DNA of 64,000 nt from Bacteroidales bacterium (GTDB taxonomy: Bacteria; Bacteroidota; Bacteroidia; Bacteroidales; P3), in the NCBI GenBank assembly GCA_017451385.1, contig JAFSPS010000008.1:89750-153749 (forward strand), given 5' to 3'. The stretch's first letter is position 1. Each line of letters opens with the position of its first letter. The notes under the pieces were generated by a model. That model saw nothing but the letters and a program-made list of their open reading frames with translations. It was not told where the DNA came from and made no database searches. This document shows positions 8,145 through 56,441 of this stretch, piece by piece. Made by a program: the position numbers and the translations under genes.

Positions 8145-8192
8145 TTGTAGTTTAATATGATCTATCTATGGTAGAGTGTCTGTTGTAGAGGT

Positions 8193-8948: not shown

Positions 8949-8952
8949 TGTA

Positions 8953-9777: not shown

Positions 9778-9815
9778 AGTAATTATTTGTGTTTCTCAAA
9801 ATGTCTGAATTATTG

Positions 9816-12790: not shown

Positions 12791-14248
12791 TCAGTCGTCG
12801 TCGTTGCCCTCGAAAAGGGTCTTTGTCAGCCAGTCGTTCACTGGGTCGAGGAGGCCGCGGAAACGTTTTTTCTTGTTTTTCGGTTTTTCGGTAATGGCGG
12901 GTTCTACAGGTTTCTCCTCTTCAGGTATGTCGTTGATGATGGGGGAGACAGGCTCTACGGGCGTATCTTCTATGGGAGTGTCCTCTTTTGGAGTGTCCTC
13001 AACGATGTTTTCTTCCTCGGTGGTCTGAGCTTCCTCTTTAGCTGCTTCCTTCTCTTCCTCGCAGTTGAGGCCGTAAATCACGAGTCCAATGCCGGTGGCA
13101 TACATCGTGTCGTTGTAGGTGTTCATGTTCTGCACCTGCACGTCGGTGTTGTCGGCAGGTTCGAGGTGTACGCCGGGTGTGCCGATGTGGCAGTGTACGC
13201 CGGTGACGAGCATGGCGAGTTCTTGTATGTTCTTCATATTGGCGCCGCCGCCGGTGAGTGCAATGCCGTTGTTCCTGATGCGCGTCATCATCTGAGAGTT
13301 GTCCAGCTCCATAGAGACGAGGCCGAGGATGATTTCCACTCTGTTCTTTATGATTTCGGCGAGGGTGCGCTGGCTAATCTCGCGTGCCGGCTGGCCGTAG
13401 TTGTAGGGTATGGAGACCACGGTGTTGGGGTTGACCTCGGAGGGGAGGCACTCGCCAAAGCGTTTCTTGAGCACTTCGGCTTTCTGCCGCACGATGCCGC
13501 AGTTGGAGCTGATGTCCGTGGTGATGCTGTCGCCCGCCATAGAGATGACGAGGGTGTAGCGCACCATGTTGTCATAGAGCACGGCGATGTCGGTGGTGCC
13601 GCCACCGATATCGACAAGTGCGACGCCGTCGGCTATGTCGTTCTCGTTGAGTACGGCATAGGAGGAGGCTACGGGTTCGAGGACGATGCCCGCCACGGAG
13701 TAGCCCGCCATGCGTACGGTATCTACGAGTTTCTTTATCTCGTTGCGTTTGCCGATGATGACGTTGAAGGTTCCTTTCAGCACATGGCCTGAGACACCGA
13801 CGGGAGGTATGTCGTTAGCGAGTTTGCGTCCGTCAACGGAGTAGGTCTGCGGGAAGATATGAATGATGTCCTCGCCTTCTTCGGTGGTTGCCGTATCACG
13901 CAGAGTCTGCGTCAGCGTGTCGATGTCGCTCTGGCTGACAATCTGAAATTCGTTTTGAGGCACGGGGATGCTTGCCTCCATCGATTTAGTCTGAATATGG
14001 TAGCCTGCTACGCCAATGTACACTTCGCTCACAGCAATGCCTGCTTGGTCCTCGGCGGCCTGTACTGCTTTCTTGATGGATTCGGCAGTGTTCTGCAGGT
14101 TCTCCACAACGCCGCTGCGCACGCCATTGGAGTCAGAGCGTCCGAAGCCGAGTATTTTTATCTTGTCGCGCCGGCTGCCACGTTTGCCTATGAAACAGGC
14201 TATCTTGGTGGTACCAATGTCTAATCCTACTACAATTTTTTCTTCCAT
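12791..14248 (-). CDS. ftsA: cell division protein FtsA
   Basis: 485 aa with actin-fold motifs VGLDIGTTKIA and DIGGGTTDIAV. It has an acidic C-terminal extension followed by a basic/amphipathic tail (KKKRFRGLLDPVNDWL) and lies between ftsQ and ftsZ. Confidence 0.95.
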   Translation of the reverse strand: MEEKIVVGLDIGTTKIACFIGKRGSRRDKIKILGFGRSDSNGVRSGVVENLQNTAESIKKAVQAAEDQAGIAVSEVYIGVAGYHIQTKSMEASIPVPQNEFQIVSQSDIDTLTQTLRDTATTEEGEDIIHIFPQTYSVDGRKLANDIPPVGVSGHVLKGTFNVIIGKRNEIKKLVDTVRMAGYSVAGIVLEPVASSYAVLNENDIADGVALVDIGGGTTDIAVLYDNMVRYTLVISMAGDSITTDISSNCGIVRQKAEVLKKRFGECLPSEVNPNTVVSIPYNYGQPAREISQRTLAEIIKNRVEIILGLVSMELDNSQMMTRIRNNGIALTGGGANMKNIQELAMLVTGVHCHIGTPGVHLEPADNTDVQVQNMNTYNDTMYATGIGLVIYGLNCEEEKEAAKEEAQTTEEENIVEDTPKEDTPIEDTPVEPVSPIINDIPEEEKPVEPAITEKPKNKKKRFRGLLDPVNDWLTKTLFEGNDDD

Positions 14249-14359: not shown

Positions 14360-15118
14360 TTATCTTTTCTTGCAGACCACTTGGTCGTTGTATTTGAGGT
14401 TGACCACCTTGTAGCGGTCCCATCCTACGCGAGGGAGTGCTTGGTCGTAGAGTGCCATGAGCCGTTCTAATTTGTCGTCGAGGTCATCGGTATTGCCTAC
14501 ATTGACAACATGTGTTCCTGCCTTAGGAGTGAGGATGAAGTCGCCATTCTGGTCGCGGTATATTTGGTCGAAGAGGCTGCCGTAGCCGTTGTCGTCGATG
14601 TAGTGAGCGAGAATCCATAGGTGGCTCATGTCGTTGAGTTGCAGAAGTGTGTCGTTCTGCCAGAGGCTGAAGTCTGTGGAGATGTTTATGAGCGTGTCGT
14701 TGGTGTGCAGGTGTCCGCTGGCTATTGTTACATGTGCCATGCCTTCGTTGGATAGCGGCATGTAGCGGCCCTGACGGTCTATGTAGTACTGGCGTCCGTT
14801 CTGATAGACGTGGAGCAGCGGATGACGCTGGTCGGCCTTGACCACCACATTGCCCAAAATGCTGACGTAGGCTTGGCAGTTCTCGATGTAGGGGGAGCGC
14901 ATGACGCACTGCTTGATGTTGCGCGTGTCAATCTCTTTCACTTTGAGCGACATCATTGTCGGCATGGTGGTGTTGATGGCTCTCTCAATGGTGGCGGCGG
15001 AGACGAGGGTGTCGCACCCGTTGTAACGCACTCTCACCTGCAGCTCGCGCACCACGGCGTTGCTCCTCACGATGTTGGCTCCAACAACAAGGATGATAAT
15101 AGCCAAGGCTATCAGCAA
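14360..15118 (-). CDS. ftsQ: cell division protein FtsQ (TTG start as drawn; true start uncertain)
   Basis: 252 aa with an N-terminal TM segment (LIALAIIILVVGA) followed by a POTRA-like region, in the syntenic position before ftsA. There is no ATG/GTG between the upstream in-frame stop (15176-78) and the TTG at 15118. Confidence 0.8.
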   Translation of the reverse strand: MLIALAIIILVVGANIVRSNAVVRELQVRVRYNGCDTLVSAATIERAINTTMPTMMSLKVKEIDTRNIKQCVMRSPYIENCQAYVSILGNVVVKADQRHPLLHVYQNGRQYYIDRQGRYMPLSNEGMAHVTIASGHLHTNDTLINISTDFSLWQNDTLLQLNDMSHLWILAHYIDDNGYGSLFDQIYRDQNGDFILTPKAGTHVVNVGNTDDLDDKLERLMALYDQALPRVGWDRYKVVNLKYNDQVVCKKR

Positions 15119-15610: not shown

Positions 15611-16978
15611 CTATTTCGAGTTTAATAGTTTTTCTTCTATTGTTGGCACCAGTCGGTCGATGTCGCCAGCGCCGAGAGTCATCAGCACGTCGCAGTCTAT
15701 CTCTGTCACATGTTGTATGAGTTGCTCTTTGGAGTAGAGACGCCTGTGAGAGGAGGTGATGTTGTCTAATATCAGTAGCGAAGATACGCCGGCTATGGGT
15801 TCTTCGCGTGCGGGGTATATGTCGAGCAGCGTCACATCGTCGAGGGCAGACAAAGAGGTAGCAAACTCGCGGTAGAAATCGGCGGTGCGGCTGTATAGGT
15901 GTGGCTGAAAGATGCCGGCGATGCGCTTGTTGGGATAGAGCTGTCGCGCGGAGTCTATGGCGGCAGCCAGTTCGCGAGGGTGGTGAGCGTAGTCATCAAT
16001 ATAGATGATGTGGCTGTTGCACACGCGGTAGTCGAAGCGGCGGCGTATGCCACTAAAGTGTGCCATGCCGCGGCGGATGGCATCGGCATCGGCGCCGCAG
16101 GCTATCGCTACGGCTATGGCGGCGACGGCGTTCTCAATGTTGTAGGGTGCCGACTGAAGGTATATGTCGTTTATGGTAAGATGGTTGTCGGTATAGTCAA
16201 AGCGTATTCCATGTTGCTCGATGCGTATGTTGCTGGCATGATGTGTGGCGTTGCTTGCTTTGCCGCTATAGCAGGAGGCATGGCCGTTGGAGATGCGCTG
16301 TAGTACGAACGATTGGTGTGCTGCGAGGAGCGATGCGTTGCTCTGTATGAATATATGCCCGTCTTCGTCCGTCTGACTGGCAAACTGGTCGAAGGCCTCC
16401 AGCAGGTTGGCGTGGGTGCCATAGATGTCGAGATGGTCGGCATCGGTGGAGGTGATGACGGAGAGGTAGGGGTGCAGATGGAGGAAGGAGCGGTCATACT
16501 CGTCGGCTTCAACGACAACATATTTACTGCCGGTCTGACATAGCATATTGCTGTCAAGATTCTTGTGTATGCCGCCGAGGAAGGCATCCACCGCTATGCC
16601 AGCCTCCTGAAGCAGGGTGACAATCATGCCCGAGGTGGTGGTCTTGCCGTGGCTGCCGGCTACGGCTATGCAGCGTTTGCCGCGCGTCAGCTCGCCCAGC
16701 ATCTGTGAACGTTTCACAATCTTCACTCCGCGTGCCTCCATGTGTCTGTAAACCTCTGTGGTGCGTGGCACGGCAGGGGTGTAGATGCAGAGGTCTATGT
16801 CGGTGGGTATTTTGGCGGGGTTGTCGTCATAATGCACTACGATGCCCTCATGCTCCAGCTGGTGCGTGAGAGGGCTCTCGGCATGGTCGTAGCCATACAC
16901 GTTGTCGCCACGCTGTTTGAAGTAGCGTGCCAGCGCGCTCATGCCTATCCCTCCTATGCCGATAAAATAGTAGTTCAT
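15611..16978 (-). CDS. murC: UDP-N-acetylmuramate--L-alanine ligase
   Basis: 455 aa with IGIGGIGMSALA and AVAGSHGKTTT, in dcw synteny. Confidence 0.95.
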   Translation of the reverse strand: MNYYFIGIGGIGMSALARYFKQRGDNVYGYDHAESPLTHQLEHEGIVVHYDDNPAKIPTDIDLCIYTPAVPRTTEVYRHMEARGVKIVKRSQMLGELTRGKRCIAVAGSHGKTTTSGMIVTLLQEAGIAVDAFLGGIHKNLDSNMLCQTGSKYVVVEADEYDRSFLHLHPYLSVITSTDADHLDIYGTHANLLEAFDQFASQTDEDGHIFIQSNASLLAAHQSFVLQRISNGHASCYSGKASNATHHASNIRIEQHGIRFDYTDNHLTINDIYLQSAPYNIENAVAAIAVAIACGADADAIRRGMAHFSGIRRRFDYRVCNSHIIYIDDYAHHPRELAAAIDSARQLYPNKRIAGIFQPHLYSRTADFYREFATSLSALDDVTLLDIYPAREEPIAGVSSLLILDNITSSHRRLYSKEQLIQHVTEIDCDVLMTLGAGDIDRLVPTIEEKLLNSK

Positions 16979-17067: not shown

Positions 17068-18177
17068 TTATTTTTTAGCAATTTTCTCTATCTCGTCAAC
17101 GATTTTGTCTGCTGAGCCGCGTAGTGCGAGAGAGGCACATGCCTTGCTCATAGAGATGCGTTTATCTGGCGATGCGATGATTTCCAATAGTTTATCTATC
17201 CCTTCATTGTTGCAATCTTTGTCTGCGACCAAAATTGCAGCTCCTTTATTAACAAGTGATTGTGCATTTTTTGTCTGATGGTCCTCTGCTACATTGGGCG
17301 ATGGTATCAGGATTATGGGTTTGCCGACGATGCACAATTCGGAGATTGCTATGGCACCGGCGCGAGACATGACAACATCGGCGGCAGTGTATGCCATATC
17401 CATTCTCGTAATGAACTGATGGACTTTGACCCACTTCTCCACACCGCGTCTTGCCACGGCATCGCGCACCTGCTCGTACATCCAGCGTCCTGTCTGCCAG
17501 ACAATCTGTATGCCGTGGTCGGCGAAGGTGTCAATATGGTTGAGCAACATGTTGTTGATGCTGCTTGCGCCGAGGCTGCCGCCCACCGACAACACAATGG
17601 GCATCGAGGTATCGAGGTCGAAATGGGCACAGCTTTCGTCCTTTCCGACTTTCATGTTCTCTATGTCGTCGCGTACGGGGTTGCCTGTCAATACGATTTT
17701 GTCGGCAGGGAAGAAACGGTCCATGCCTTCGTATGCTACGCAGATGCAGTCGGCTTTGTTGGCGAGCATCTTGTTGGTGAGTCCGGCGTATGAGTTTTGT
17801 TCCTGAATGAGTGTTGGGAAACCCATAGCGGCAGCCTGCTTGAGCGTTGGCTCGCTGGCGAAGCCGCCTACGCCTACCACTACATCAGGATTGAAGTCGC
17901 GAAGGAGTCGACGTACCATGCTGCGACTGCGTATTATTTTGTAGGGTAGCGTCAGGTTGCGCTTGATGTTGGTCCAGTTGAGCTGGCGGTGCAGGCCGTC
18001 GATAGGGAGACCTTTGATGGCGTAGCCTGCTGCCGGCACTTTCTCCATCTCCATCTTGTCCTCGGCGCCGACAAAGAGAATGTCGGCATCGGGGTGGCGT
18101 CTGCGCAGACTGTTGGCTATGGCTATGGCAGGGAAGATGTGTCCGCCGCTGCCGCCGCCGCTTATTATTGCTTTCAT
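17068..18177 (-). CDS. murG: undecaprenyldiphospho-muramoylpentapeptide beta-N-acetylglucosaminyltransferase
   Basis: Start set at the internal ATG 18177 (MKAIISGGGSGGHIFPAIAIA), giving 369 aa. The 176 upstream codons of the 545-aa track ORF are His/Arg-rich and overlap ftsW. There is an ATGA overlap with the ftsW stop. Confidence 0.93.
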   Translation of the reverse strand: MKAIISGGGSGGHIFPAIAIANSLRRRHPDADILFVGAEDKMEMEKVPAAGYAIKGLPIDGLHRQLNWTNIKRNLTLPYKIIRSRSMVRRLLRDFNPDVVVGVGGFASEPTLKQAAAMGFPTLIQEQNSYAGLTNKMLANKADCICVAYEGMDRFFPADKIVLTGNPVRDDIENMKVGKDESCAHFDLDTSMPIVLSVGGSLGASSINNMLLNHIDTFADHGIQIVWQTGRWMYEQVRDAVARRGVEKWVKVHQFITRMDMAYTAADVVMSRAGAIAISELCIVGKPIILIPSPNVAEDHQTKNAQSLVNKGAAILVADKDCNNEGIDKLLEIIASPDKRISMSKACASLALRGSADKIVDEIEKIAKK

Positions 18178-19382
18178 TTTGTTTCCTCCGTTGTTGTTTT
18201 GTCGTCGATGGCAGCTTCGTCGTTTTTCTGAAGCTTGCGCTGATTGTTCGAACTCTTCACTACGGCTTGAATCATTCCGATGCCGATGCAGGTGAAGACA
18301 TAGGATGTGCCGCCGGTGCTTATCAGAGGCAGAGTCTGTCCCGTCACCGGGATGACACCAACGCAGACGCAGATATGCACAATGGCTTGCAGGTATATGG
18401 ATGTGGCAATGCCCATGATGAGTAGTCCGCCGAAGCGTCGTCCGCTTTTGTAAGCCAAAATCATGCAGCGGTAGAAGAGGATAGTGTACAAGAGGAAGAT
18501 GATGACGCCCACGATGCTGCCCGTTTCTTCGACGATGATGGCATAGATGAAGTCGTTGTTGGCCTGCGTCATCAGACGGGCGTGGACGGTGCCGCCGATG
18601 TTGGCTTTGATAAGACCGCCTTCGGCAATAGCCATGCGCGCCATGTTCTCTTGCGACAGTTCCTCCTTGTCGGGGTTGAGCCAGTGGTCGATGCGATTGG
18701 ACCACGTCTCGGCGCGCGCGATGAGAGGAGCCTCTCTGGCGTAGGATGCCAGAGGACTGTGGAACACCTTGTAGCTGACGAAGAGCATGCTGCCGCCAGC
18801 TATGCCGAGAAGTGCTATGGTGATAAAGATATATTTGCGCTTCACGCCGCCCAGATACATTATCGCCAGTCCTGTGGCAAAGACGAGCAGTGCGGTGGAA
18901 AGGTTCTCGGGCATGATAAGGCCAGCAACGAGTGCTAAGGGTATGAGCGTGAGCCAGAAGAGTTTTTTGTCGTTCAGCTGGTCATGGTAGATGGCTAAGA
19001 GGTGAGCTATGAAGATGATTACTATCGGTTTTGCAATCTCTGATGGTTGGAACTGTCCGATATATCTCAGTCTCAGCCAACGCCCTCCTAAGACGAGGAC
19101 GACAAACAGGAGAGCTACGGCACCTAAATACAATACATTAGCTATGCGAGAAAAAAACTGATAGTTGATGTTGGAGACCACCATAGCGCCAAGGTAGGCA
19201 ATCAGCACATAGAGGAGGTGCTTTTTGAGGAATGCCATTACCGGAGTGGTGTGATAGTCGATGATGGCGGTGTAGCCTATGGAGCTATACACCGCAATGA
19301 GCGATATGGTGCTAAGGATGAAACAAAGCAACCATACGACCCTATCGCCGCTAAACTTCAGTATTTTTATCTTGCTCTTCAA
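18174..19382 (-). CDS. ftsW: SEDS-family peptidoglycan glycosyltransferase FtsW
   Basis: 402 aa polytopic membrane protein in the syntenic position. It has a TTG start 9 nt after the preceding stop and no upstream ATG. Confidence 0.9.
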   Translation of the reverse strand: MKSKIKILKFSGDRVVWLLCFILSTISLIAVYSSIGYTAIIDYHTTPVMAFLKKHLLYVLIAYLGAMVVSNINYQFFSRIANVLYLGAVALLFVVLVLGGRWLRLRYIGQFQPSEIAKPIVIIFIAHLLAIYHDQLNDKKLFWLTLIPLALVAGLIMPENLSTALLVFATGLAIMYLGGVKRKYIFITIALLGIAGGSMLFVSYKVFHSPLASYAREAPLIARAETWSNRIDHWLNPDKEELSQENMARMAIAEGGLIKANIGGTVHARLMTQANNDFIYAIIVEETGSIVGVIIFLLYTILFYRCMILAYKSGRRFGGLLIMGIATSIYLQAIVHICVCVGVIPVTGQTLPLISTGGTSYVFTCIGIGMIQAVVKSSNNQRKLQKNDEAAIDDKTTTEETK

Positions 19383-19391
19383 AACGAAGGA

Positions 19392-19931
19392 TTATAATTC
19401 GTTGACTTCGAGGCGGAAATGGTTGCCGTTCTCCTGTATGGAGCGGCCGTTGTCGCTGGCTGGGGAATAGATAATGGTGGCAGTCTCCAGCGAGTTGTAG
19501 AAAGCCTTGCTGACGGCTTCGCCGAGGCTGTTGACATCAACTATGGTAGGGATGATGCCGTCGAAGCTACGATGCAGATTCTCGTTGTTGCTGCCTACGC
19601 AGTAGAGCACGCGAACTTTGCGTAGCGCGGTGGCTTTCAGTCGGCTGTAGTCAGTGGTATTGTCGTTGCCGTTGGCAATCCAGATAAGGCTGCCCGTCAT
19701 GCTCTCAAGAGTGTACCATGTGGCATTGACGTTGTTGGACGAAGCGTCGTTGATGAATGTTTTGCCGTGTATGCGTGCCACGTATTCCTTGCGATAGCGC
19801 ATCTCCTCGAAGCGTGCGAAGCAGGAACGCAGTCCGGCGTTGCGCATGTGTTTCAGGCGTTTGGTGTTGATTTCAGCCAGGGTGTTGGGGACAGTGGTGC
19901 GACCTTGCTGTGCTAATGTTTCGATAGTCAT
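19392..19931 (-). CDS. MurD C-terminal-domain-only protein with degenerate ligand-binding motifs (truncated murD homologue)
   Basis: 179 aa with ATG start, occupying the murD slot between mraY and ftsW. By eye it aligns to the last ~175 aa of MurD: YRKEYVARIHGKTFINDASSNNVNATWYTLESM, WIANGNDNTTDY, IYSPASDNGRSIQENGNHF. There is no room for the N-terminal and ATP-binding domains because only 74 nt separate it from the mraY stop. Confidence 0.75.
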   Translation of the reverse strand: MTIETLAQQGRTTVPNTLAEINTKRLKHMRNAGLRSCFARFEEMRYRKEYVARIHGKTFINDASSNNVNATWYTLESMTGSLIWIANGNDNTTDYSRLKATALRKVRVLYCVGSNNENLHRSFDGIIPTIVDVNSLGEAVSKAFYNSLETATIIYSPASDNGRSIQENGNHFRLEVNEL

Positions 19932-20005
19932 AGATGTATTGTATTTAGATGTTATATTTTGATTTTTCAGTACGATGTTTTTTTCGTTGGACGAGGCGGT
20001 TATGC

Positions 20006-21184
20006 TTACCTTAGTTTGAAGGAAACTATGGTAGCGATGGCGAGCAGTATGCCGATGATGGTGAAGCGTTGCACTATCTTCTCGTCGTTGAGGCTTTTGC
20101 CGTCATTGCGGTGTTTGTGTTGATAGTTGTGGTGGAGTGGAGTGTAGCGGAAGATGCGTTTCTCTATAGGCACCTCTTCGTTGGCTGGCAGTTTGTGGCG
20201 GAAGCGGTAGATTTTGCACCCCCAGCGTTGGAGAATCACAGAGGCGTCCTCTGCCACGTATATGCCGCAGAGCAGAGGCAGGAGGAGCTCCTTGCGTATC
20301 AGGAGTGCGAAGACGGCGATGATGCCGCCGATGGTCAGCGAGCCGGTGTCGCCCATGAAGATGGTGGCAGGGTGCGTGTTGTACCACAGAAAACCGAGGA
20401 GTGCGCCGATGAAGGAGGACATGAACATCGTCAGTTCGCTGGCTTGGCTGAGATAGACAATGTTGAGATATCTGGCCATGATGATGTTGCTGGAGAGCCA
20501 TCCGATGATTGCCAGTGTGCCGCCCATGATGGCGCCGCTTGCCGTGGCGAGGCCGTCAATGCCGTCGGTGAGGTTGGAGGCGTTGGAAATGGCAGTGATG
20601 ATGAAGATGCAGATGGGTACATAAATCAGCACCGTGTATTTCTCGGCGCCATCGCCAATCCAGCTGACGAGCCACGAATAGTCGAACTCAGTGTTTTTGA
20701 TGAAGGGTATCGTCGTCTTGGTAGAGGCAATGTCAGGATGATAGATGAGCATGAGACCCACGACGAGGCCGAGAGCCACCTGCCCTATTACCTTGAATTT
20801 GCCAGGGAGGCCTTTTTTGTCATGTTTGAACACCTTGATGTAGTCGTCGATGAAGCCAATGAGTCCCAGCCATAGCGTTGTGCCAATCATAATGAGGATA
20901 TAGATGTTGTCGGGACGAGCGAAGAGCAACGTAGGGATAAGTATGGCGATGATAATCAGTAGGCCGCCCATAGTGGGAGTGCCCTGTTTCTCGCGTTCGT
21001 CATCGCGCGTTTCCTCGCCGATGCCGTAGCGGTGCATGGCGCGGATGAACGACTTGCCGAAGATGATGACTATCAGCATAGAACAGATGAAGCAACAAGC
21101 AGCGCGGAACGAGATGTACTGGAACAATCCTGTGCCGGGGATGTTGAATTCAGCATCGAGCCATTGAAACAGATAGTAGAACAT
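20006..21184 (-). CDS. mraY: phospho-N-acetylmuramoyl-pentapeptide transferase
   Basis: 392 aa starting MFYYLFQWL, with NLTDGIDGLA and FMGDTGSLTIGG; polytopic. Confidence 0.95.
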   Translation of the reverse strand: MFYYLFQWLDAEFNIPGTGLFQYISFRAACCFICSMLIVIIFGKSFIRAMHRYGIGEETRDDEREKQGTPTMGGLLIIIAILIPTLLFARPDNIYILIMIGTTLWLGLIGFIDDYIKVFKHDKKGLPGKFKVIGQVALGLVVGLMLIYHPDIASTKTTIPFIKNTEFDYSWLVSWIGDGAEKYTVLIYVPICIFIITAISNASNLTDGIDGLATASGAIMGGTLAIIGWLSSNIIMARYLNIVYLSQASELTMFMSSFIGALLGFLWYNTHPATIFMGDTGSLTIGGIIAVFALLIRKELLLPLLCGIYVAEDASVILQRWGCKIYRFRHKLPANEEVPIEKRIFRYTPLHHNYQHKHRNDGKSLNDEKIVQRFTIIGILLAIATIVSFKLR

Positions 21185-21202: not shown

Positions 21203-22648
21203 TTAGTTTAACAATATGTGCTGCAACTCCTCTTTGTCGTCAAAGTGGGAGCGCACGCCGTTGATTTCTTGGTATTTCTCGTGTCCTTTGCCAGCCACGA
21301 GGATGATGTCGCCCTCTTGAGCCATCATGCAGGCGGTGCGTATGGCCTGACGGCGGTCGGTGATGCGTACTACGGTCCATCGCTTGTCGTTGGGTATGCC
21401 GCTCTCCATGTCGTCGAGTATCTTGTTGGGGTCCTCGGTGCGCGGATTGTCGGAGGTAATCACCACCTTGTCGGACATGTTGGCAGCTATGAGAGCCATC
21501 TCGGGGCGCTTGGTGCTGTCGCGGTCGCCGCCGCAGCCTACCACGGTAATCAGATGCTGCCGCTCGTTGCGTATGTCGTTGATGGTCTGCAGTACGTTCT
21601 GCAGTGCATCGGGGGTGTGGGCATAGTCCACGATGGCGGTGATGCCATGTCCCGTGACATATTCGAAGCGTCCTTCGGCGGCGTGCAGGTCGCTCAGCAA
21701 TCGTAGAGCTTCGAGGCTCTCTATGCCGCAGAGAACCGCTGTGGCATAGATGGCGGTAAGGTTGTAGGCGTTGAAGCGGCCAACGAGGCGGGTCCACACT
21801 TCCTGTCCGTTGAGTTCTATCAGCATGCCTTGGAATGTGTCCTCCAGCACCTTGCAATGGAAGTCGGCGGGATGCTGCAGACCATAGGTCTTTATGGTGG
21901 CGCGGCAGTTCTGCATCATCACCATGCCGTTGCGGTCGTCGATGTTGGTCAGAGCGAAAGCCTCCTGCGGCAGGCTGTCGAAGAACCCTTTTTTCGCGGC
22001 GATGTAGGCTGCCATCGTCTTGTGGTAGTCGAGGTGGTCGTGGGTGATGTTGCTGAAGATGCCACCGGCAAAGGTCAGTCCGGCGATGCGCTGTTGCACT
22101 ACGGCGTGGCTGCTGACCTCCATGAAGCAGTATTCGCATCCAGCTTCCACCATCTGATGGAGCAGTTGGTTAAGGGTCAGTGCATCGGGTGTAGTGTTGA
22201 TGGTGGGGTACTCTTGCTCGTCAATCTTGTTGACGATGGTGGAGATAAGCCCTGCGTGGTGGCCTGCGGCACGCATCATGCGCTGTAGCAGCGTCACGGT
22301 GGTTGTCTTTCCGTTGGTGCCGGTGATGCCAACAAGGCGAAGATGACGGGAGGGGTGGTTGTAGAAGTTGTCGGCAATGATGCCAAGAGCACGGTTGCTG
22401 TCTTCAACCTGCAAGTAGCAGACATTGCTGTTGATGGAGGAAGGCATCTGCTGGCATACCACGGCTGTGGCGCCGCTTGCGATGGCGCTGTCTATGTATT
22501 TGTGTCCATCGACATGCACGCCGGCTTGAGCCACGAAGAGTGAGCTTTGCTGCACCTTGCGCGAGTCAGACTGAATGTCGTTTATCTCGCGTTCGGCGTT
22601 GCCGACGATGGGTGCGTCAATTCCATTTATGATATCGATGAGTCTCAT
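21203..22648 (-). CDS. murE: UDP-N-acetylmuramoyl-L-alanyl-D-glutamate--2,6-diaminopimelate ligase
   Basis: 481 aa with GITGTNGKTT, DYAHTPDAL and GCGGDRD. Confidence 0.95.
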   Translation of the reverse strand: MRLIDIINGIDAPIVGNAEREINDIQSDSRKVQQSSLFVAQAGVHVDGHKYIDSAIASGATAVVCQQMPSSINSNVCYLQVEDSNRALGIIADNFYNHPSRHLRLVGITGTNGKTTTVTLLQRMMRAAGHHAGLISTIVNKIDEQEYPTINTTPDALTLNQLLHQMVEAGCEYCFMEVSSHAVVQQRIAGLTFAGGIFSNITHDHLDYHKTMAAYIAAKKGFFDSLPQEAFALTNIDDRNGMVMMQNCRATIKTYGLQHPADFHCKVLEDTFQGMLIELNGQEVWTRLVGRFNAYNLTAIYATAVLCGIESLEALRLLSDLHAAEGRFEYVTGHGITAIVDYAHTPDALQNVLQTINDIRNERQHLITVVGCGGDRDSTKRPEMALIAANMSDKVVITSDNPRTEDPNKILDDMESGIPNDKRWTVVRITDRRQAIRTACMMAQEGDIILVAGKGHEKYQEINGVRSHFDDKEELQHILLN

Positions 22649-22698: not shown

Positions 22699-24858
22699 TT
22701 AGTTAGAGAGTGTTAGTATGGCGGTGGTGTTTCTTTTAATGGGCGTGTGGGGCTTGGGCTGTTGTGCTGAGACGCGGCCATAGCCTGAGAATTTCACCTT
22801 CATGCCCAGTTCGTTAAGGAGGCGAATGGCATCCTTTGCCGTCATGCCTTTGCAGTTGGGCATGATGTCGGTGCGTGGGCTGTAGTTGTGGTAGCCTTCA
22901 TTGTAGGTCACCCAGCGGTAGTTGGAGTCGGCGAGAGCGAAGGGGATGTCCAATCGGTTGTAGTAGTCGGCGATGTCGGAGCGGAAGCCTTTGGAGGTAA
23001 AGGGTGTGCGACTCTCCTCGGGAGTCTCCCATGAAAGCGTCTCCATCATGATGTTGCCCAACTCTTTGTCGAGAGCCATCACGCCGTCAGCCACGCGCTT
23101 CATCACGGGGGCTGCAGCAGCGCCGCCGGATGACATGGTGTTGTTAATCATCACGAGGCAGGTGTATTTGGGGCGGTCGATGGGGAAGAAACCGACAAAA
23201 TAGGCATCGTTGGCGCTATAGCCTGTGGCGTTGATTTTTGCTGTGCCCGTCTTGCCGGCAATACCATAGGAGGTGTTTTTTATGCTTGTTGCGGTGCCTT
23301 CTGTCACCACACGACGCAGTGTGCGTTGCAGATATTGCGCTGTCTCGCGGCTCATGCCTTGTTCGAGCACAACGGGTACGTTTATCTCGGTTGTTTTGCC
23401 GTCAACCTCGTAGCTCTGGCAGAAGAGTGGTTTCACCATGCGTCCGTTGTTGGCAATGGCGTTGTAGAAGGTCAGCAGTTGCATGGGCGAGACGGCGGTG
23501 CCGTAGCCGAAGCAGAAGTTGAGGAAGTCGCGCGTGTAGCGCAGATTGTTGATGCGCTGTTTTGATTCTGGAGTGCGGAGGTCTATGTTGAGGATTTGTC
23601 CCGGGAATACCTTTCTCACCTCATGGCTCAGGGCGTTGCGCTCTTTGCGGTAGTACTTCCACCCGAGGTCTGCCATAGCGACATTGGAGGAGTGTATGAT
23701 GGCGTCAGCAACGGTTATTGTATCGCCGATGGCATGCTCGTCGGTGAGTTCGCCCTGCGGGGTATTGTCAAAGCGTTTCACGCGTGCGCGCAGCAGAATG
23801 GAGGTGTCCATCTTGATGGAATCGCTGTTCATGATGGCAGCGAGCACGACGGTCTTGAATGTAGAACCGGGTTGGCGGCGGTCGGAGCAGGCGATGTTTT
23901 TGTCGGCCAGTTCGCGGAAGTGTCCCGTGCTGTCTAAGGCGAGGTTGCTGCAGGCCTTGACATATCCCGTTGCTGTCTCCATGAGCACTACGCATCCTTG
24001 AGAGGCGTTGCGCTGGGTCAAAGCATCGCGGAGAGCCTGTTCGGCGATGTCTTGATAGCGTGTGTCGATGGTTGAGGTGATGTTGCCACCGTCAATCTTT
24101 TGTGTTACTACGCGTTCGGGTAGCCATGTGCCACGCGTGAGGCGGCGGCACTCGAAGACGCCGTCCTGACCGCGCAGGATGCTGTCGTAGTAGCCCTCCA
24201 GCCCTGTGTAGCGTTCTTCCAGTCCGTAGCTCATTCCCACCACGTTGCCGCCGAGGTTGTCATAGATGCGTATGCGCATGTGGTGACGAACATCTTTGTC
24301 GTCCACTTGTTCGACGATGCCGCGTCGCCATCCTGTCACCTGACGCAGTTCCAGCCATTTGGTGTAAGGGAAGTTGCGGGCTATGAGCATGCACTGTTTC
24401 GGTTTCTCAACGGCACGTTCTGCCAGCAGCTTTTCTTTAATTGCTTTGACGGACTTGGAGGGTGCGCCCTCATGTATAATCATGCAGATGCTGTCAAGTC
24501 CGGCGACGAAGTATTTTTCGCTGATAGAGGTGTCAATGCGCGGTTCGCCCTTGGTGTTATAGAGCGGTTTGCCGTCGCGGTCGCGCACCTGACGGTGTCC
24601 GAGGTCCAGATAGAGGTCGCATACAACGATGGTGGTGGCGAGTGTCTTGCCGTCGGCGGAGTAGATGTCGCCGCGTTGTGCTGGGTCGCGCATCTCGCTG
24701 ACGATACGTTCTTTGGACCGTTGCCGCCAATAGTCGCCCTCGACGCCTTGGGTGCGGATGAAGCCGAACAGCATCAGACCGCCACCTCCCAAGGTCAGCA
24801 GTAGGAAGATGCTCAGCATCTTGCGGCGGTTGTTGCTATTTTTCTGTTCGTTGGTCAT
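22699..24858 (-). CDS. ftsI: class B penicillin-binding protein (FtsI/PBP3-like transpeptidase)
   Basis: 719 aa with an N-terminal TM. Motifs STFK (SxxK), SSN (SxN) and KTGT, plus a PASTA-like C-terminal segment. It lies between ftsL and murE. Confidence 0.9.
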   Translation of the reverse strand: MTNEQKNSNNRRKMLSIFLLLTLGGGGLMLFGFIRTQGVEGDYWRQRSKERIVSEMRDPAQRGDIYSADGKTLATTIVVCDLYLDLGHRQVRDRDGKPLYNTKGEPRIDTSISEKYFVAGLDSICMIIHEGAPSKSVKAIKEKLLAERAVEKPKQCMLIARNFPYTKWLELRQVTGWRRGIVEQVDDKDVRHHMRIRIYDNLGGNVVGMSYGLEERYTGLEGYYDSILRGQDGVFECRRLTRGTWLPERVVTQKIDGGNITSTIDTRYQDIAEQALRDALTQRNASQGCVVLMETATGYVKACSNLALDSTGHFRELADKNIACSDRRQPGSTFKTVVLAAIMNSDSIKMDTSILLRARVKRFDNTPQGELTDEHAIGDTITVADAIIHSSNVAMADLGWKYYRKERNALSHEVRKVFPGQILNIDLRTPESKQRINNLRYTRDFLNFCFGYGTAVSPMQLLTFYNAIANNGRMVKPLFCQSYEVDGKTTEINVPVVLEQGMSRETAQYLQRTLRRVVTEGTATSIKNTSYGIAGKTGTAKINATGYSANDAYFVGFFPIDRPKYTCLVMINNTMSSGGAAAAPVMKRVADGVMALDKELGNIMMETLSWETPEESRTPFTSKGFRSDIADYYNRLDIPFALADSNYRWVTYNEGYHNYSPRTDIMPNCKGMTAKDAIRLLNELGMKVKFSGYGRVSAQQPKPHTPIKRNTTAILTLSN

Positions 24859-24928: not shown

Positions 24929-25396
24929 TTATTTTCTTTTCAGTGTCAGTGGCGGTTCTGTTACGAGTTTTACGCCTGCGGAGTCGAGGCTGTTGGCTAT
25001 GGTAGAAATCTTTATGGACTGCTGGTATTGGCTTTTCAGCTGTATCTGCTGCATGCTTAGTTCGTCAATCTCTTTGCGGGTCTGTATAATCTCCTTTCGC
25101 AGGTTCTCCATCGTGTAGCGGTTGCTGACTATTGCGATGCAGAATAATAAAATCAGCATGGCCAGCGGTATTTGCCGTAGTGCGTTATGTGTCAGTAACA
25201 TTTCGCCTCCGAAGACCATACGCATCCAAGAGGTCTTTTTCTTCTTGCCTTCGGTTGGTGTGGCCTCCGGCGTGCTGTCGCCCGTTGATGCCTCTGGTGC
25301 ATCGGACGGCGACGCTGTCTCGCTCTTCTTGGGCGACAGCAGCTCGGTTTCTTCTTGGAAAACAGGCTCTTCGATATGTGCGAATCTGTTGGCCAC
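24929..25396 (-). CDS. ftsL: FtsL-like cell division protein (Bacteroidota type)
   Basis: 155 aa with a GTG start, a single TM followed by a coiled coil (ENLRKEIIQTRKEIDELSMQQIQLK), and a position between rsmH and ftsI. Confidence 0.75.
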   Translation of the reverse strand: MANRFAHIEEPVFQEETELLSPKKSETASPSDAPEASTGDSTPEATPTEGKKKKTSWMRMVFGGEMLLTHNALRQIPLAMLILLFCIAIVSNRYTMENLRKEIIQTRKEIDELSMQQIQLKSQYQQSIKISTIANSLDSAGVKLVTEPPLTLKRK

Positions 25397-25441: not shown

Positions 25442-26350
25442 TTATGATATCTTCTCGGCTATTCTTAGTTTTGCGCTGCGCGAACGTGGGTTACGTTGCA
25501 GTTCGTCATCGGTGGGGACTAAGGCTTTGCGGCTCACCATCTTGAGAGGTGTTAAGGGGTTGCCGAAGAAGTCTTTTTCCACCACTCCTTCGAAGTTGCC
25601 GGCGCGCATGAAATTCTTCACCAGTCGGTCTTCGAGCGAATGGTAAGAGAGTACTACGAGACGTCCGCCCTTGTTGAGTAGCTCGGTGGCTTGCATGAGC
25701 ATCTCTTTCAGAGCGTCCAGTTCGCCATTGACCTCGATACGGAGGGCTTGGAAAATCATAGCCAGATACTTGTTCTCATAGCCGCGAGGGAGGTGCCGTT
25801 CCACAGCTTTGCAAAGTTGGAGTGTTGTCTCGATGGCGTTTTGGCGGCGAGCGTCGCAGATGGCGTGAGCTATCTGGCGTGCGTTGGGCAGCTCGCCGTA
25901 GAGACGCATGATAGAAGTCAGCGTCTCTTCGTCGCTGTCGTTGACCAATTCGCGTGCCGAGAGAGCCTGCCGTTGGTCCATGCGGAGGTCGAGTGCGCCG
26001 TCGTGGCGTGTGGAGAAGCCACGCGAGGCTTCGTCAAACTGATGGGATGAGACGCCGAGGTCGGCTAAGACACCATCAACGTTGCGTATGCCGTGGAGGC
26101 GGAGGAAGTTTTTCAGATAACGGAAATTCTCGTTGATGAGCGTGAAACGTTTGTCGTCGATGCTGTTGGCCACTGCGTCCATGTCTTGGTCGAATGCCAC
26201 GAGGCGTCCTTCGTCGTCGAGAGCATCTATGATGGCACGCGAATGACCGCCGCCGCCAAAGGTAGTATCAACGTAGGTACCTTTGGCACGGATGTTCAAT
26301 CCATTGATTGTTTCGGTGAGCATCACCGGCAGGTGGTAATCGTTTGCCAT
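25442..26350 (-). CDS. rsmH: 16S rRNA (cytosine1402-N4)-methyltransferase
   Basis: 302 aa with HLPVML, TFGGGGHS and DLGVSSHQFD. Confidence 0.95.
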   Translation of the reverse strand: MANDYHLPVMLTETINGLNIRAKGTYVDTTFGGGGHSRAIIDALDDEGRLVAFDQDMDAVANSIDDKRFTLINENFRYLKNFLRLHGIRNVDGVLADLGVSSHQFDEASRGFSTRHDGALDLRMDQRQALSARELVNDSDEETLTSIMRLYGELPNARQIAHAICDARRQNAIETTLQLCKAVERHLPRGYENKYLAMIFQALRIEVNGELDALKEMLMQATELLNKGGRLVVLSYHSLEDRLVKNFMRAGNFEGVVEKDFFGNPLTPLKMVSRKALVPTDDELQRNPRSRSAKLRIAEKIS

Positions 26351-26354
26351 TGTT

Positions 26355-26822
26355 TTAGTTTTCGTCCGAAGAGCTGTCTTTCAGGTTGCCCAGACGCTGG
26401 TCCACCAGCGAGGCGAAGTCTGTAGTGTCAGCTTCCAATGCGGCATAGCTATCGTAGTCCCAAATCTCGATATATCTGCCAACGGACTGTAAAACAATGT
26501 CTTTTGCAGCTTTGATGCGTTCTTTTTGCTCGGGAGGTATCAACAGGCGGTCGTTGGTGTCGAGTTCCACGACGTTGCAACGAACGAGTTCTCGCAGAAG
26601 CTTGACATCTTCTTTGTTGTAACGGCTGAGAGTCTTGTTCAGCAGTGCTACCTCTTCTTCAAAACTGGCATAAGTCCATAGCTCCAGACAGTTGGCGTAA
26701 ACGCTGCGGCGGATGACGAAACGGTTGTCGTCCGAAGCCACCTGACGCTTCAACGCTACGGGCAGCTTGAAACGGCCGTTCGAATCGACCTTACAACGCT
26801 CTATACCAAGGAGTAACGACAT
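26355..26822 (-). CDS. mraZ: division/cell wall cluster transcriptional regulator MraZ
   Basis: 155 aa with two DxxxR repeats (DSNGRFKLP, DTNDRLLIP); first gene of the operon. Confidence 0.93.
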   Translation of the reverse strand: MSLLLGIERCKVDSNGRFKLPVALKRQVASDDNRFVIRRSVYANCLELWTYASFEEEVALLNKTLSRYNKEDVKLLRELVRCNVVELDTNDRLLIPPEQKERIKAAKDIVLQSVGRYIEIWDYDSYAALEADTTDFASLVDQRLGNLKDSSSDEN

Positions 26823-27633: not shown

Positions 27634-28773
27634 CTATTCGCCCGTCAGCGTGGCGAGGGCTTTTTCTATGAAGCCGTTGCCTAATTCGTAGAGTTGCCCC
27701 GTGCAATAGGAAAGCATGATATAGTCTGTCGTCGCCAGTTCCTCTGATAGATTGACCTCTGATACATTGTGATGATTCTCGTCGAAATAGACGCTGTTGT
27801 TGTAGAACCAATAGTGAGCGCTGCTAAAAATGTCTTTCAGTGGGAAGTTGTATCTGACATTCCAAAAGAAACTATCACCAATGACCAGCAGTTTCGGTTT
27901 CTTTTTACATTCGGCAACGCTTACATCCATATATTTGTATTTCTCGCCTCTTGAAGGGAAAATGAGGTTGAGGAGTTGGTATAGGTCGTCGTCGGGATGA
28001 CGTTTTTTGTCTATATAGGGTTTGCTGATACTGAGTTTGACGAACGGTGTAGCGTCGGAGGACTGCATATAGCGAACGATCGAGTCGAAGGAATAGACAC
28101 ATGCGGCATTAGACCAGTGTGTGCCGTATTTTGTCATAACATCGAATGGGAGAGTGTCACGTTGCTCTTTTAGCCATTGACACATATCAACATAATTGAT
28201 TCCATAACGGTCAAACAATTGCAGATAGGTGTCATAGGCACTAATTCCGAATGGGCGTGTATTCCAGTCGGGAGCGGGGATGTGGTCGGGATATAAGATG
28301 TTTTTGGATGGAAGAATAGCGACAAATATTTTCTTGCCGTGGGATGCGAGGGAGTCTTGCAGCAAGGACAGCTGTTGAGCCGTATGCTCGAATCGTTCCC
28401 GTAGAGAGGAACTGTCGTCGGCAAATTCGTACATACGACTCTCGTAGTAGTCCTCGACAAAGTAGCGTTCGTACAAATAGCCATCGTCGCCCTTCATCAC
28501 ACAGTAATTGGTGCTTTTGCCATAGAGCGACCATATGTGCTGGTTGTATAATCGTATAAGAATCTCCCTAAAGCCAATATTGTTTTTCGCATATTTGTCA
28601 GCTTGTTGTTGGAAAGTGCCATCCATGAATCCATGGAAAGACAAATACGGCTTGTCGCAGCTGTTGCTTACACCGCTGAGTTCTCTGACATGAATGACAT
28701 GGGTGAACCCTTGTAGAAGAGTCAGTCCGAGCAGCATGATAGTGATTATTGCAAGTACCTTGTTTGTCCTCAT
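27634..28773 (-). CDS. AlgX/AlgJ-like (SGNH-like) O-acylation accessory protein
   Basis: 379 aa with an N-terminal anchor. It has a GTHWS motif (compare D-x-HW of AlgJ/DHHW proteins) and a late GDSF motif, and lies immediately downstream of the MBOAT gene. Confidence 0.65.
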   Translation of the reverse strand: MRTNKVLAIITIMLLGLTLLQGFTHVIHVRELSGVSNSCDKPYLSFHGFMDGTFQQQADKYAKNNIGFREILIRLYNQHIWSLYGKSTNYCVMKGDDGYLYERYFVEDYYESRMYEFADDSSSLRERFEHTAQQLSLLQDSLASHGKKIFVAILPSKNILYPDHIPAPDWNTRPFGISAYDTYLQLFDRYGINYVDMCQWLKEQRDTLPFDVMTKYGTHWSNAACVYSFDSIVRYMQSSDATPFVKLSISKPYIDKKRHPDDDLYQLLNLIFPSRGEKYKYMDVSVAECKKKPKLLVIGDSFFWNVRYNFPLKDIFSSAHYWFYNNSVYFDENHHNVSEVNLSEELATTDYIMLSYCTGQLYELGNGFIEKALATLTGE

Positions 28774-28785
28774 GGCTTTGCGAGA

Positions 28786-29127: not shown

Positions 29128-29139
29128 ACGCGGTATTCG

Positions 29140-56324: not shown

Positions 56325-56441
56325 AGATATTATTGGAATATAGGTATATGAATGAATGTGCAAATATATTATTATTTGCCGAATTGGTGTGCGGAAAAAG
56401 TTTTTTGCATTTGGTTTGGGTCAAAATGAATGATTGTCCTA

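Follow-up and report, generated by a model that had tools for sequence, protein, structure and literature searches.

A conserved stand-alone descendant of the MurD C-terminal domain in the murD position of the dcw cluster of uncultured Bacteroidales

Introduction

The D-glutamate ligase MurD is generally considered to be essential, universal and active as a single chain. It is an antibiotic target and one of the 120 marker genes of bacterial taxonomy. In the 64,000-nt stretch of Bacteroidales DNA analyzed here (the window), the dcw slot between mraY and ftsW holds only a short gene, encoding 179 amino acids. What is this protein, and which enzyme carries out the D-glutamate ligase reaction? 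Searches of the literature brought up no description of this protein.

Results

Layout of the locus

The dcw genes around the short ORF are arranged as follows.

15611..16978, minus strand: murC, ordinary (TIGR01082, 387 bits; cut-off 335)
18174..19382, minus strand: ftsW, downstream neighbor, TTG start, beginning 9 nt past the stop codon of the short ORF
19392..19931, minus strand: stand-alone MurD C-terminal protein, 179 aa, ATG start (MurD profile, BLASTP and fold match)
19392-19394, minus strand: stop codon of the 179-aa ORF
19932..20005, minus strand: spacer between mraY and the 179-aa ORF, 74 nt, 68% A+T
20006..21184, minus strand: mraY, upstream neighbor, 392 aa (TIGR00445, 266 bits; cut-off 192)
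21203..22648, minus strand: murE, ordinary meso-DAP-adding ligase (NF001126, 625 bits; cut-off 373)

This is the layout described in an earlier note on this DNA: a minus-strand mraY, a 74-nt AT-rich spacer, a 179-aa ORF with an ATG start, 9 nt and ftsW. The ORF comprises the last strand and helix of MurD domain 2, followed by the whole of domain 3. MurD domains 1 and 2 need ~800 nt, for which the spacer is too small, and no trace of either domain was detected in it (a profile of the N-terminal and central domains gave 4.6 bits on the upstream-extended frame). A scan of the minus strand of the spacer, in which Bacteroidetes promoters are not represented, found neither a terminator-like site nor a sigma-70-like promoter. 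A MraY fusion and read-through were both rejected, because the frames of mraY and the short ORF differ and the corresponding gaps in relatives occur in all three frames. The window ORF is identical to a database protein from a Bacteroidales bacterium MAG (P0001, IJR13_02020), which NCBI names a hypothetical protein.

The 179-aa protein is homologous to the MurD C-terminus

The TIGR01087 murD profile matched the 179-aa protein at E=4e-21 over profile positions 270-435 of 441, with a score of 75.6 bits that lies below the curated cut-off of 211.95 bits. In BLASTP, residues 297-437 of E. coli MurD aligned with it at 25% identity (E=6e-8). Pfam Mur_ligase_C (PF02875) scored only 17.1 bits (E=0.01), under its gathering threshold of 28.4, and a few family members pass this model in precomputed Pfam hits. 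The similarity to the MurD C-terminus that the earlier note had drawn by eye is nevertheless a homology far beyond chance. Of the three-domain MurD architecture, the matched part covers the C-terminal third only. The position of the profile match, together with the end of mraY 74 nt upstream, also bears out the claim that the N-terminal and central domains are missing.

We compared a structural model with the MurD C-domain. The AlphaFold2 model had a pLDDT of 84, and the top 33 PDB matches in Foldseek were all MurD crystal structures, the best being 7U35 (E=1.7e-11, TM 0.69, rmsd 2.0 Å over 141 residues). The protein is thus predicted to fold like MurD domain 3.

Substrate-contact residues are replaced, and other positions are fixed

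Residues are numbered as in the E. coli MurD literature; family counts are over 72 species with the short form, and the comparison set comprised 31 full-length MurD sequences. The relevant segments of the window gene are listed below.

19902..19931, minus strand: decapeptide MTIETLAQQG, left over from the final beta-strand of the central domain of MurD
19785..19796, minus strand: YRKE, the MurD H301-R302-x-E304 motif with His replaced by Tyr
19731..19751, minus strand: NDASSNN, the MurD N-D-S-K-A-T-N motif; D317 kept, K319 and T321 replaced
19653..19676, minus strand: ANGNDNTT, the former GG-x-D-K-G loop with K348
19446..19466, minus strand: SPASDNG, the MurD S-P-A-C-A-S-F/L motif; S415-L416 replaced by N-G
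19395..19409, minus strand: EVNEL, C-terminal, conserved at the protein level

All substrate-contact positions that had been reported as substituted (the His of HR.E, the Lys and Thr of SKAT, K348 and S415) were indeed replaced: H301 by Y46, K319 by S64, T321 by N66, K348 by N91 and S415 by N161. The equivalent of F422 is Ile. The window protein retains R302, E304 and D317, which the earlier account did not mention, as well as N316 and the TWY-x-LE and SPA motifs.

The same pattern was observed across the family. Among the D-Glu contacts, T321 was present in 1/72 species, K348 in 0/72, S415 in 3/72 and F/Y422 in 0/72; K319 was found in 0/72 and R425 in 3/72, and the adenine-site Asn residues N268 and N271 in 0/72 and 5/72, respectively. 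Each of these eight residues is present in 24-31 of the 31 full-length MurD sequences. The residues with which MurD binds D-Glu and the adenine of ATP are lost across the short-form family. R302 and D317, by contrast, were each kept in 72/72 species and E304 in 70/72, so that of the Mur-superfamily invariants within the fragment, R302 and D317 are universal while N268 and N271 are almost absent. We take R302 and D317 to be the invariants associated with ATP binding; their complete conservation might mean that an active site is still completed by the protein in trans.

The replacements themselves are conserved. H301 is kept in 6/72 short forms and is Tyr in 56/72; position 321 is Arg in 66/72, with Asn in the window protein; position 416 is Gly in 63/72, preceded by Asn, Asp or Gln in 54/72. 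R321 and the Asn/Asp/Gln-Gly pair at 415-416 suggest a pocket that was remodeled rather than abandoned. The label 'degenerate', previously given to the protein, is too simple for a family with conserved replacements of its own. A second sublineage carries other replacements (K319 to F/M, T321 to I, R302 to Q).

Four slow-evolving short forms (L084, L146, P0067 and P0102) keep K319, T321, S415, F416, Y/F422 and R425, and have no N-terminal or central MurD part in cis. Even where the pocket of a slow-evolving short form is otherwise canonical, N271 is missing. The near-complete D-Glu pocket of these relatives is no less compatible with a two-piece enzyme than with a regulator.

Conservation was highest at the N-terminus, where the decapeptide surpasses every other segment (mean top-residue frequency 0.86; I3 in 72/72, L6 in 69/72 with six codons in use, and Q9 in 71/72). 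At the same point, M-[TS]-I-[QE]-E-L-A-L-Q-G-K-H-N occurs as an internal sequence of full-length Bacteroidota MurD. The C-terminal EVNEL is likewise kept in 68-71 of 72 species per position, with all synonymous codons used. At the other extreme, residues 88-93 (the former K348 loop) are the most variable segment, with a mean top-residue frequency of 0.36 and differing lengths among relatives; together with the F422 region (0.42), they are the least conserved parts. In the model, residues 1-18 had pLDDT values below 50, and the decapeptide is predicted to be disordered on its own. A segment that appears constrained at the protein level only and disordered when alone is a hint of docking.

The short gene is widespread, intact and under purifying selection

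We compared the mraY-ftsW interval in relatives, and the short gene was intact in all 81 copies, one from the window and 80 from GTDB species representatives, each with an ATG start and a length of 176-186 aa. No frame disruption or length decay was detected among them. Related database clusters (n=53) all encode 166-182 aa. All carriers are uncultured MAGs that come from the rumen or the gut of other herbivores; one of them is 'bacterium P3' (LPNH01), of the BS11 family. Further high-quality MAGs with a short gene are RUG13549 (CADAQX01), RGIG4772 (JAFURZ01), RUG134 (ONBB01), a genome in which P0490 lies on a 3.75-Mb contig, and, for the slow-evolving form, ELA062 (JBAWXL01). The gene order was murE-mraY-X-ftsW-murG-murC, with X the short gene, in nearly all loci. 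Across all in-slot relatives the gap between mraY and the short gene was 1-308 nt, and in 14 of the 79 relatives with a located ftsW, the stop of the short gene overlaps the ftsW start by 4 nt. In two loci (L016 and L018), the short gene lies between ftsL and ftsI, with mraY abutting ftsW, and is still strongly constrained. Protein identity of distant members was 49-53%, within the range of FtsW, FtsI and FtsA. Membership in a defense system was rejected, as the window ORF matched 0 families in the PADLOC defense models.

The dN/dS of the short gene was 0.22-0.28, compared with 0.20-0.21 for ftsW, 0.13-0.15 for murG and 0.10-0.13 for mraY, and it fell to 0.014-0.06 in three of the closest pairs. 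Close pairs had, for example, dS 0.14 with dN 0.002 and dS 0.39 with dN 0.007. Synonymous sites are saturated across the species that carry the intact gene, and at both protein termini the amino acids are conserved while synonymous codons vary freely. By these estimates, purifying selection on the short gene is as strong as on ftsW, and on comparative grounds both an assembly artefact and a pseudogene in decay are rejected.

The short forms have essentially one origin

In a neighbor-joining tree of the C-domain, 126 short sequences formed one clade, and in a MraY tree 81 of 82 short-form lineages did so; such trees carry no support values, and fast-evolving sequences may group artificially in them. 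The closest lineages by MraY that have a canonical full-length MurD are L100 and L127. As judged from these trees, the short forms go back to what is essentially a single truncation event, confined to one subclade of the Bacteroidales; the cut lies within a beta-strand. A one-time loss of the 5' part of murD in the distant ancestor of this subclade, with a conserved internal Met codon taking over as the start, would account for this.

No N-terminal or central MurD part was found nearby

We searched all six-frame ORFs with phmmer (E. coli MurD as query) and with an HMM of Bacteroidota MurD domains 1-2. The flanks covered were ~1.6 Mb from 90 related loci, up to 10 kb on each side. Neither the 64-kb window nor these flanks yielded an N-terminal or central MurD part. 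In the window and the 90 loci, and then in 170 loci, only murC and murE matched, besides ordinary full-length murD in unrelated lineages. The best 120 matches listed in a database search with the domain-1+2 profile were all full-length Chitinophagales or Capnocytophaga MurD or fragments thereof. A scan of JGI metagenomes with the slow-evolving short forms returned 73 ordinary full-length genes, 6 truncations at contig edges and 1 true short form, and no neighboring domain-1+2 gene was found in it. The full-length MurD nearest to the short forms in the C-domain tree (P0121) was considered as a relocated murD and rejected, being an ordinary dcw gene. Annotation of the rest of the 64-kb window revealed no other type of ligase.

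Discussion

The reading we favor, with about evenly balanced confidence, is that the product of the ORF descends from MurD domain 3, stands alone and has no catalytic activity, and that it has been retained as a genuine accessory gene of the dcw cluster. Because selection keeps the gene intact although the substrate-binding residues are gone, it would be a repurposed protein and not a dead relic. It may serve the cytoplasmic synthesis of peptidoglycan precursors, or division, as an accessory subunit (an adaptor, a regulator or a ligand sensor). Its orphan N-terminal strand and C-terminal helix could dock on a putative partner, for which a Mur ligase, MraY, FtsW and MurG are the most plausible candidates. 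The D-glutamate ligase reaction would then be performed by an enzyme encoded outside the dcw cluster, and the true ligase is presumably encoded elsewhere in the genome.

Somewhat less probable, and put forward tentatively, is that a whole uncultured Bacteroidales clade of guts and anaerobic sediments, to which the rumen BS11/P3 family belongs, has no conventional single-chain MurD for its peptidoglycan synthesis. D-Glu would be added either by a two-piece enzyme with the short protein as its C-terminal subunit, or by an unrecognized ligase or salvage route, in which case the short protein would be a new non-catalytic component of the precursor pathway.

Taken singly, the two-piece enzyme is unlikely, although it is the strongest rival. 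The ORF would be the C-terminal subunit and domains 1 and 2 would be encoded elsewhere as a ~265-aa protein; the N-terminal strand would complete the small beta-sheet of the partner's central domain in trans, and the remodeled pocket (R321, Asn-Gly at 415-416 and main-chain contacts) would still bind D-Glu. This would suit a truncation inside a beta-strand that is itself the most conserved part of the protein, the invariant R302 and D317, and the canonical pocket residues of the slow-evolving relatives, which occupy the same slot. A frameshifted murD (L010), whose two ORFs break at the same Met, also fits. However, no domain-1+2 gene lies in the window or within the flanks of up to 10 kb in the 90 loci, and hardly any short form keeps N268 or N271, two Mur-superfamily invariants that the fragment itself would carry. 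Moreover, the K348 loop is hypervariable in both sequence and length, and different sublineages replaced the D-Glu residues differently, as expected if catalytic constraint has been released. The conserved catalytic and substrate residues that would mark a split MurD were found in a few slow-evolving relatives only.

It is more doubtful still that these bacteria have no canonical MurD and add D-Glu through an unrecognized enzyme or a salvage route, with or without the short protein. None of the sequences examined contained a MurD-type N-terminal or central domain, and all carriers are uncultured MAGs. The substrate of MurE is the MurD product, and since murC and murE are ordinary and conserved, that product must be needed. 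On the other hand, inspection covered ~20 kb per genome, the window holds no candidate replacement ligase, and peptidoglycan genes outside dcw, such as murF and ddl, are common in Bacteroidota. We also know of no exception to the presence of MurD among peptidoglycan-making bacteria.

A neutral relic, that is, the leftover of a 5' deletion kept open only by its position in an essential operon (through spacing or translational coupling to ftsW), is very improbable and is already contradicted by the comparative data. The loss of catalytic residues would suit it, as would the ORF overlapping or abutting ftsW in many species, as murD does in E. coli. Against it are dN/dS values of 0.02-0.28, 81/81 intact copies despite saturated synonymous sites, amino acids conserved under free synonymous change, and survival of the gene after its move away from ftsW in two loci. 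Of the two options offered earlier for this ORF, a retained pseudo-domain with another role thus gained support and a decaying deletion relic was refuted. Finally, a collapsed or mis-called full-length murD has practically no likelihood: many 182-aa 'MurD' entries are truncated calls from the same internal Met (in mixed clusters and at contig edges) and L010 is a frameshift, but in the window DNA mraY stops 74 nt ahead of the ATG, and the structure recurs in 80 species whose assemblies were made independently, in many studies and with many assemblers.

If these comparisons hold, the dcw murD of a large, ecologically important and wholly uncultured lineage has been replaced by a conserved, catalytically stripped domain-3 protein, carried by at least 80 GTDB species representatives. 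Should a full murD exist elsewhere, the short protein would be a clean natural example of a pseudoenzyme that arose from an essential ligase and stayed in the division operon, and would offer a handle on the protein-protein contacts of the proposed Mur-ligase complex. If there is no full murD, the textbook pathway has an unrecognized variant. Public annotation is misleading: in JGI these proteins bear the name of the complete enzyme, in NCBI some of the more canonical ones are called 'cyanophycin synthetase', and the label 'hypothetical' is attached to others. The real family also has to be kept apart from the many database 'short MurDs' that are truncated gene calls.

Comparison with known systems

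The short protein resembles canonical MurD in sequence and fold over the last ~170 residues, in the mraY/ftsW slot, and in R302, E304, N316, TWY-x-LE, D317 and SPA. It differs in having no domain 1 and almost none of domain 2 (the P-loop ATPase), and in the family-wide replacement of T321, K348, S415, F422, K319, Asn268 and Asn271.

MurT of the MurT/GatD lipid II amidotransferase (6H5E, 6GS2) is likewise a Mur-ligase derivative in which the canonical three-domain architecture is incomplete, and it was among the weaker fold matches of the 179-aa protein (E about 4e-5). In the MurT/GatD structure papers, the MurT C-terminal domain is reportedly the docking surface for the partner protein. However, MurT keeps the central ATP-binding domain, is catalytic and has a known partner in GatD, whereas the short protein has no ATPase domain and is far closer to MurD than to MurT.

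The frameshifted murD of L010 yields a 182-aa C-terminal ORF with the same conserved Met start and the same length, but there a 273-aa domain-1+2 ORF immediately precedes it, overlapping it by 19 nt, and the residues are canonical. The short protein has no such upstream part and has diverged in sequence under constraints of its own.

Free MurD C-domain modules, found on phage-like contigs (P0076 in L011 and P0187 in L093), in a TIR fusion (P0089) and as an isolated gene (P0133), share the boundaries of the short protein, from the helix before H-R-x-E through the C-terminus, and have no domains 1 and 2. Unlike the short protein, they keep the canonical D-Glu and ATP contacts, lie outside the dcw operon and fall outside the short-form clade in the C-domain tree. 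Their existence indicates that the domain is viable alone.

The murD slot holds only a MurD C-terminal domain

A Bacteroidota dcw cluster of typical make-up lies on the minus strand of the window, with a 179-aa ORF between mraY and ftsW. Its genes are as follows:

26355-26822, minus strand: mraZ
25442-26350, minus strand: rsmH
24929-25396, minus strand: ftsL-like gene
22699-24858, minus strand: ftsI
21203-22648, minus strand: murE, ordinary, passing its equivalog cut-off
20006-21184, minus strand: mraY
19392-19931, minus strand: 179-aa ORF
18174-19382, minus strand: ftsW
~17068-18200, minus strand: murG
15611-16978, minus strand: murC, ordinary, passing its equivalog cut-off
14360-15118, minus strand: ftsQ
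12791-14248, minus strand: ftsA
10974-12737, minus strand: ftsZ

The mraY stop and the ATG of the ORF are separated by 74 nt (68% A+T), and the ORF stop and the ftsW start by 9 nt. The ORF is a MurD homologue corresponding to the end of the protein only. The NCBIfam murD equivalog profile (TIGR01087) matched it over positions 270-435 of 441 (E=4e-21) at 75.6 bits, far short of the cut-off of 211.95 for a real MurD, and BLASTP aligned ORF residues 41-179 with E. coli MurD 297-437. An AlphaFold2 model based on a 38-sequence family alignment (pLDDT 84) showed the predicted fold of MurD domain 3; its best 33 PDB matches were MurD structures without exception (top match E=1.7e-11, TM 0.69, rmsd 2.0 Å over 141 residues). 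Residues 1-18 were predicted to be disordered. The start codon coincides with a conserved internal Met of full-length Bacteroidota MurD (..M-T-I-Q-E-L-A-L-Q-G-K-H-N..), which in the E. coli structure falls within the final beta-strand of the central domain. An earlier note had placed a C-terminal MurD remnant in this slot; the window DNA confirmed its coordinates and description, and the profile, BLASTP and fold matches bore out the assignment.

Immediately downstream of ftsZ (6099-10403, minus strand), five successive ORFs of 186, 494, 251, 274 and 195 aa gave no Pfam match at E<=1e-4. Genes for an ALGX-domain protein and an MBOAT acyltransferase adjoin mraZ (27634-30213), and one for a sulfatase-family (LTA-synthase-like) protein lies farther away (36064-38007); all three are possibly cell-envelope modification genes. 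A 617-aa protein encoded at 54510-56363 (minus strand) has a Ser/Thr protein kinase domain together with leucine-rich repeats of the BspA type.

The short gene is conserved under purifying selection

A database search with the 179-aa ORF returned 53 clusters (42-100% identity), each of 166-182 aa, and scanning a single genome for each GTDB species yielded 82 relatives; 80 loci were retained, every one from a MAG. Most carriers belonged to the rumen, the horse gut or the guts of other herbivores (RUG, RGIG and UBA series), including 'bacterium P3' of the BS11 family and Candidatus Colimorpha; a few more distant ones were from soil or other sources. With the window included, the ORF was intact, ATG-started and 176-186 aa long in 81/81. 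The order murE-mraY-X-ftsW-murG-murC, where X is the short gene, was kept in nearly all loci, and in-slot gaps between mraY and the ORF measured 1-308 nt, never the ~800 nt needed for domains 1 and 2.

Nei-Gojobori dN/dS was 0.22-0.28 for the short ORF, 0.20-0.21 for ftsW, 0.13-0.15 for murG and 0.10-0.13 for mraY; the closest pairs of the short ORF gave dS 0.14 with dN 0.002 and dS 0.52 with dN 0.032. In two species, Candidatus Colimorpha pelethequi (L018, 2253-2792) and a related MAG (L016, 1769-2305), mraY directly adjoins ftsW and the short gene has been transposed within the operon to lie between ftsL and ftsI, where strong constraint persists (dS 0.39, dN 0.007 for the pair). Since the relocation survived under such constraint, the gene is not retained merely as operon spacing. 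These results show long-term purifying selection and dcw membership that persists even after relocation: the short gene is a conserved gene, neither relic nor artefact. The earlier note had wavered between a retained domain and a decaying 5' deletion relic, and had called for comparison of the mraY-ftsW interval in relatives; that comparison, with the ORF present and free of frame disruption, upheld the former and removed the latter.

Substrate contacts are lost and the termini kept

Positions were mapped by alignment to E. coli MurD (literature numbering) in 72 species whose short gene is close to the window ORF (the tight family) and in 31 full-length MurD representatives.

Residues of MurD in the tight family and in full-length MurD
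Position; tight family; full-length MurD
K319; 0/72 (Ala 63); 30/31
T321; 1/72 (Arg 66); 31/31
K348; 0/72 (many different residues); 25/31
S415; 3/72 (Asn/Asp/Gln); 31/31
F/Y422; 0/72; 31/31
R425; 3/72; 31/31
H301; 6/72 (Tyr 56); 31/31
N268; 0/72; 24/31
N271; 5/72; 25/31
R302; 72/72; 30/31
D317; 72/72; 31/31
E304; 70/72; 30/31
N316; 67/72; 31/31

The alignment shows the D-Glu and adenine contacts to be lost family-wide; the substitutions first noted in the window include those at K319, T321, K348 and S415. The former substrate loops are hypervariable: mean top-residue frequency was lowest at residues 88-93 (former GG-x-D-K-G loop, 0.36), followed by residues 163-169 (former F422 region, 0.42). 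It was highest in the N-terminal decapeptide (0.86), then in residues 46-76 (0.79) and over the last ten residues of the protein (0.78). At both termini the amino acids are conserved and synonymous codons free to vary; L6 is found in 69/72 species through six different codons, and each position of the C-terminal EVNEL in 68-71/72. A second sublineage (UBA4893, UBA5371, UBA5515 and others) changed the same catalytic positions in another way (K319->F/M, T321->I, R302->Q). The 179-aa ORF is a real and unusual feature, a truncated derivative of MurD, probably stripped of catalysis and kept as a gene.

Short forms probably share one origin

An exhaustive profile search found many further proteins of ~176-186 aa with the same start Met. 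Those with inspectable DNA lie between mraY and ftsW without the upstream part, namely:

P0067, in locus L006: short form in the mraY-ftsW slot
P0071, in loci L007-L009: short form in the mraY-ftsW slot
L084, 7150-7698: short form in the slot, no N-terminal or central part in cis
L146, 9877-10422: short form in the slot, no N-terminal or central part in cis

When C-terminal regions were compared in a neighbour-joining tree, 126 short sequences grouped as one clade without any full-length MurD. In an MraY tree, 81/82 short-form lineages formed one pure clade, and the ancestor common to all 82 took in 2/61 full-length lineages (L100, L127). Both trees suggest a single truncation within one Bacteroidales subclade, provisionally, because neither carries support values.

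Slow-evolving short forms retain almost the whole D-Glu pocket (12/13 canonical positions in L084; L146, P0067 and P0102 similar); N271 is gone from them, as in most cases is the lysine of K348. The first ten residues of the L084 form are those of the window protein. A conserved D-Glu pocket without an ATPase domain (L084, L146) is poorly explained by every reading so far.

MraY measures 383-392 aa in three tight-family members (window, L002, L004) and 413-424 aa in five lineages farther off, some short-form and some canonical (L006, L007, L084, L010, L096); by eye, the tight-family protein lacks a ~25-residue loop ahead of the 'TTIPF' motif.

Many canonical-looking 182-aa 'MurD' database entries are truncated calls of full-length murD at the conserved internal Met, betrayed by clusters mixing 182-aa and 444-449-aa members, contigs <2 kb and contig-edge ORFs. 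On a Flavobacteriales/Chitinophagales-like contig (L010, 1425-2776), a frameshift divides murD at the same Met, giving a domain-1+2 ORF of 273 aa and a C-terminal ORF of 182 aa that share 19 nt. A sequencing error may lie behind the break, or the gene may be a pseudogene or work in split form. Locus L013 (1-7175), a contig assigned to the bin 'Christensenella sp. UBA1214', carries a Bacteroidales-type mraY, the short gene and ftsW, followed directly by POTRA-containing ftsQ, ftsA and ftsZ, with murG and murC not in their usual place; the contig may be mis-binned or chimeric, or its operon rearranged.

Possible role of the short protein

As murC and murE are ordinary and above their equivalog cut-offs, these bacteria need the product of MurD. 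With E. coli MurD and a Bacteroidota MurD domains 1-2 profile as queries, only murC and murE came up, both in the 64-kb window and in ~1.6 Mb flanking 90 loci of short-form or related type; no other ligase was encoded in the remainder of the window. When the database was searched for domain-1+2-only proteins, ordinary MurD swamped the matches listed.

We infer, with confidence and doubt in about equal measure, that the 179-aa protein would no longer take part in catalysis and would serve precursor synthesis or division as an accessory subunit, whether adaptor, regulator or ligand sensor, that docks via its orphan N-terminal strand and C-terminal helix, with a complete D-Glu ligase encoded outside dcw. 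The main rival is a MurD in two pieces, whose domains 1 and 2 would be encoded at another site. It would fit the conserved orphan strand, the invariance of R302 and D317 and the canonical pockets seen among slow-evolving members, but three features make it unlikely: N268 and N271 are lost, the K348 loop is hypervariable and the pocket has decayed differently by lineage. A pathway without any canonical MurD is more doubtful still. With 81 intact frames, a functionless relic is scarcely credible, and an assembly or calling artefact even less so. The gene would become sharply more interesting if carrier genomes prove to lack conventional MurD.

Comparison with known systems

MurD C-domains with canonical residues also exist apart from MurD, on phage-like contigs, in a TIR fusion and as an isolated gene, so the domain can stand alone. 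Two have fully canonical D-Glu/ATP contacts:

L011, 1750-2466: P0076, 238 aa, on a phage-like contig
L093, 2995-3537: P0187, 180 aa, on a phage-like contig

These contigs carry a terminase, DUF5131, Phage_phiTE_072 and many small ORFs, and the BFVD viral structure library gave one match (A0A8S0I5L0, E=3e-7). Such a domain may be a phage tool that acts on host cell-wall precursor synthesis. P0089 joins TIR and TRADD-like N domains to a MurD C-domain and weakly matches PADLOC models of TIR-containing defence systems; in P0193 and P0116 an unrelated ~250-aa N-terminal region precedes a near-canonical MurD C-domain. In these three proteins the domain seems to have been reused as a sensor module.

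We found no description of the short MurD-derived family in the searchable literature. Public annotations call its members hypothetical, 'UDP-N-acetylmuramoylalanine--D-glutamate ligase' or 'cyanophycin synthetase', the last being the NCBI pipeline name for several short forms and the full ligase the JGI name. The closest known entity is MurD itself, from which the 179-aa protein departs in architecture, score and substrate residues. Like MurT, it derives from a Mur ligase and has a reduced architecture; in MurT/GatD structures, the partner reportedly docks on the MurT C-domain. Unlike MurT, the 179-aa protein has dispensed with the ATPase domain.
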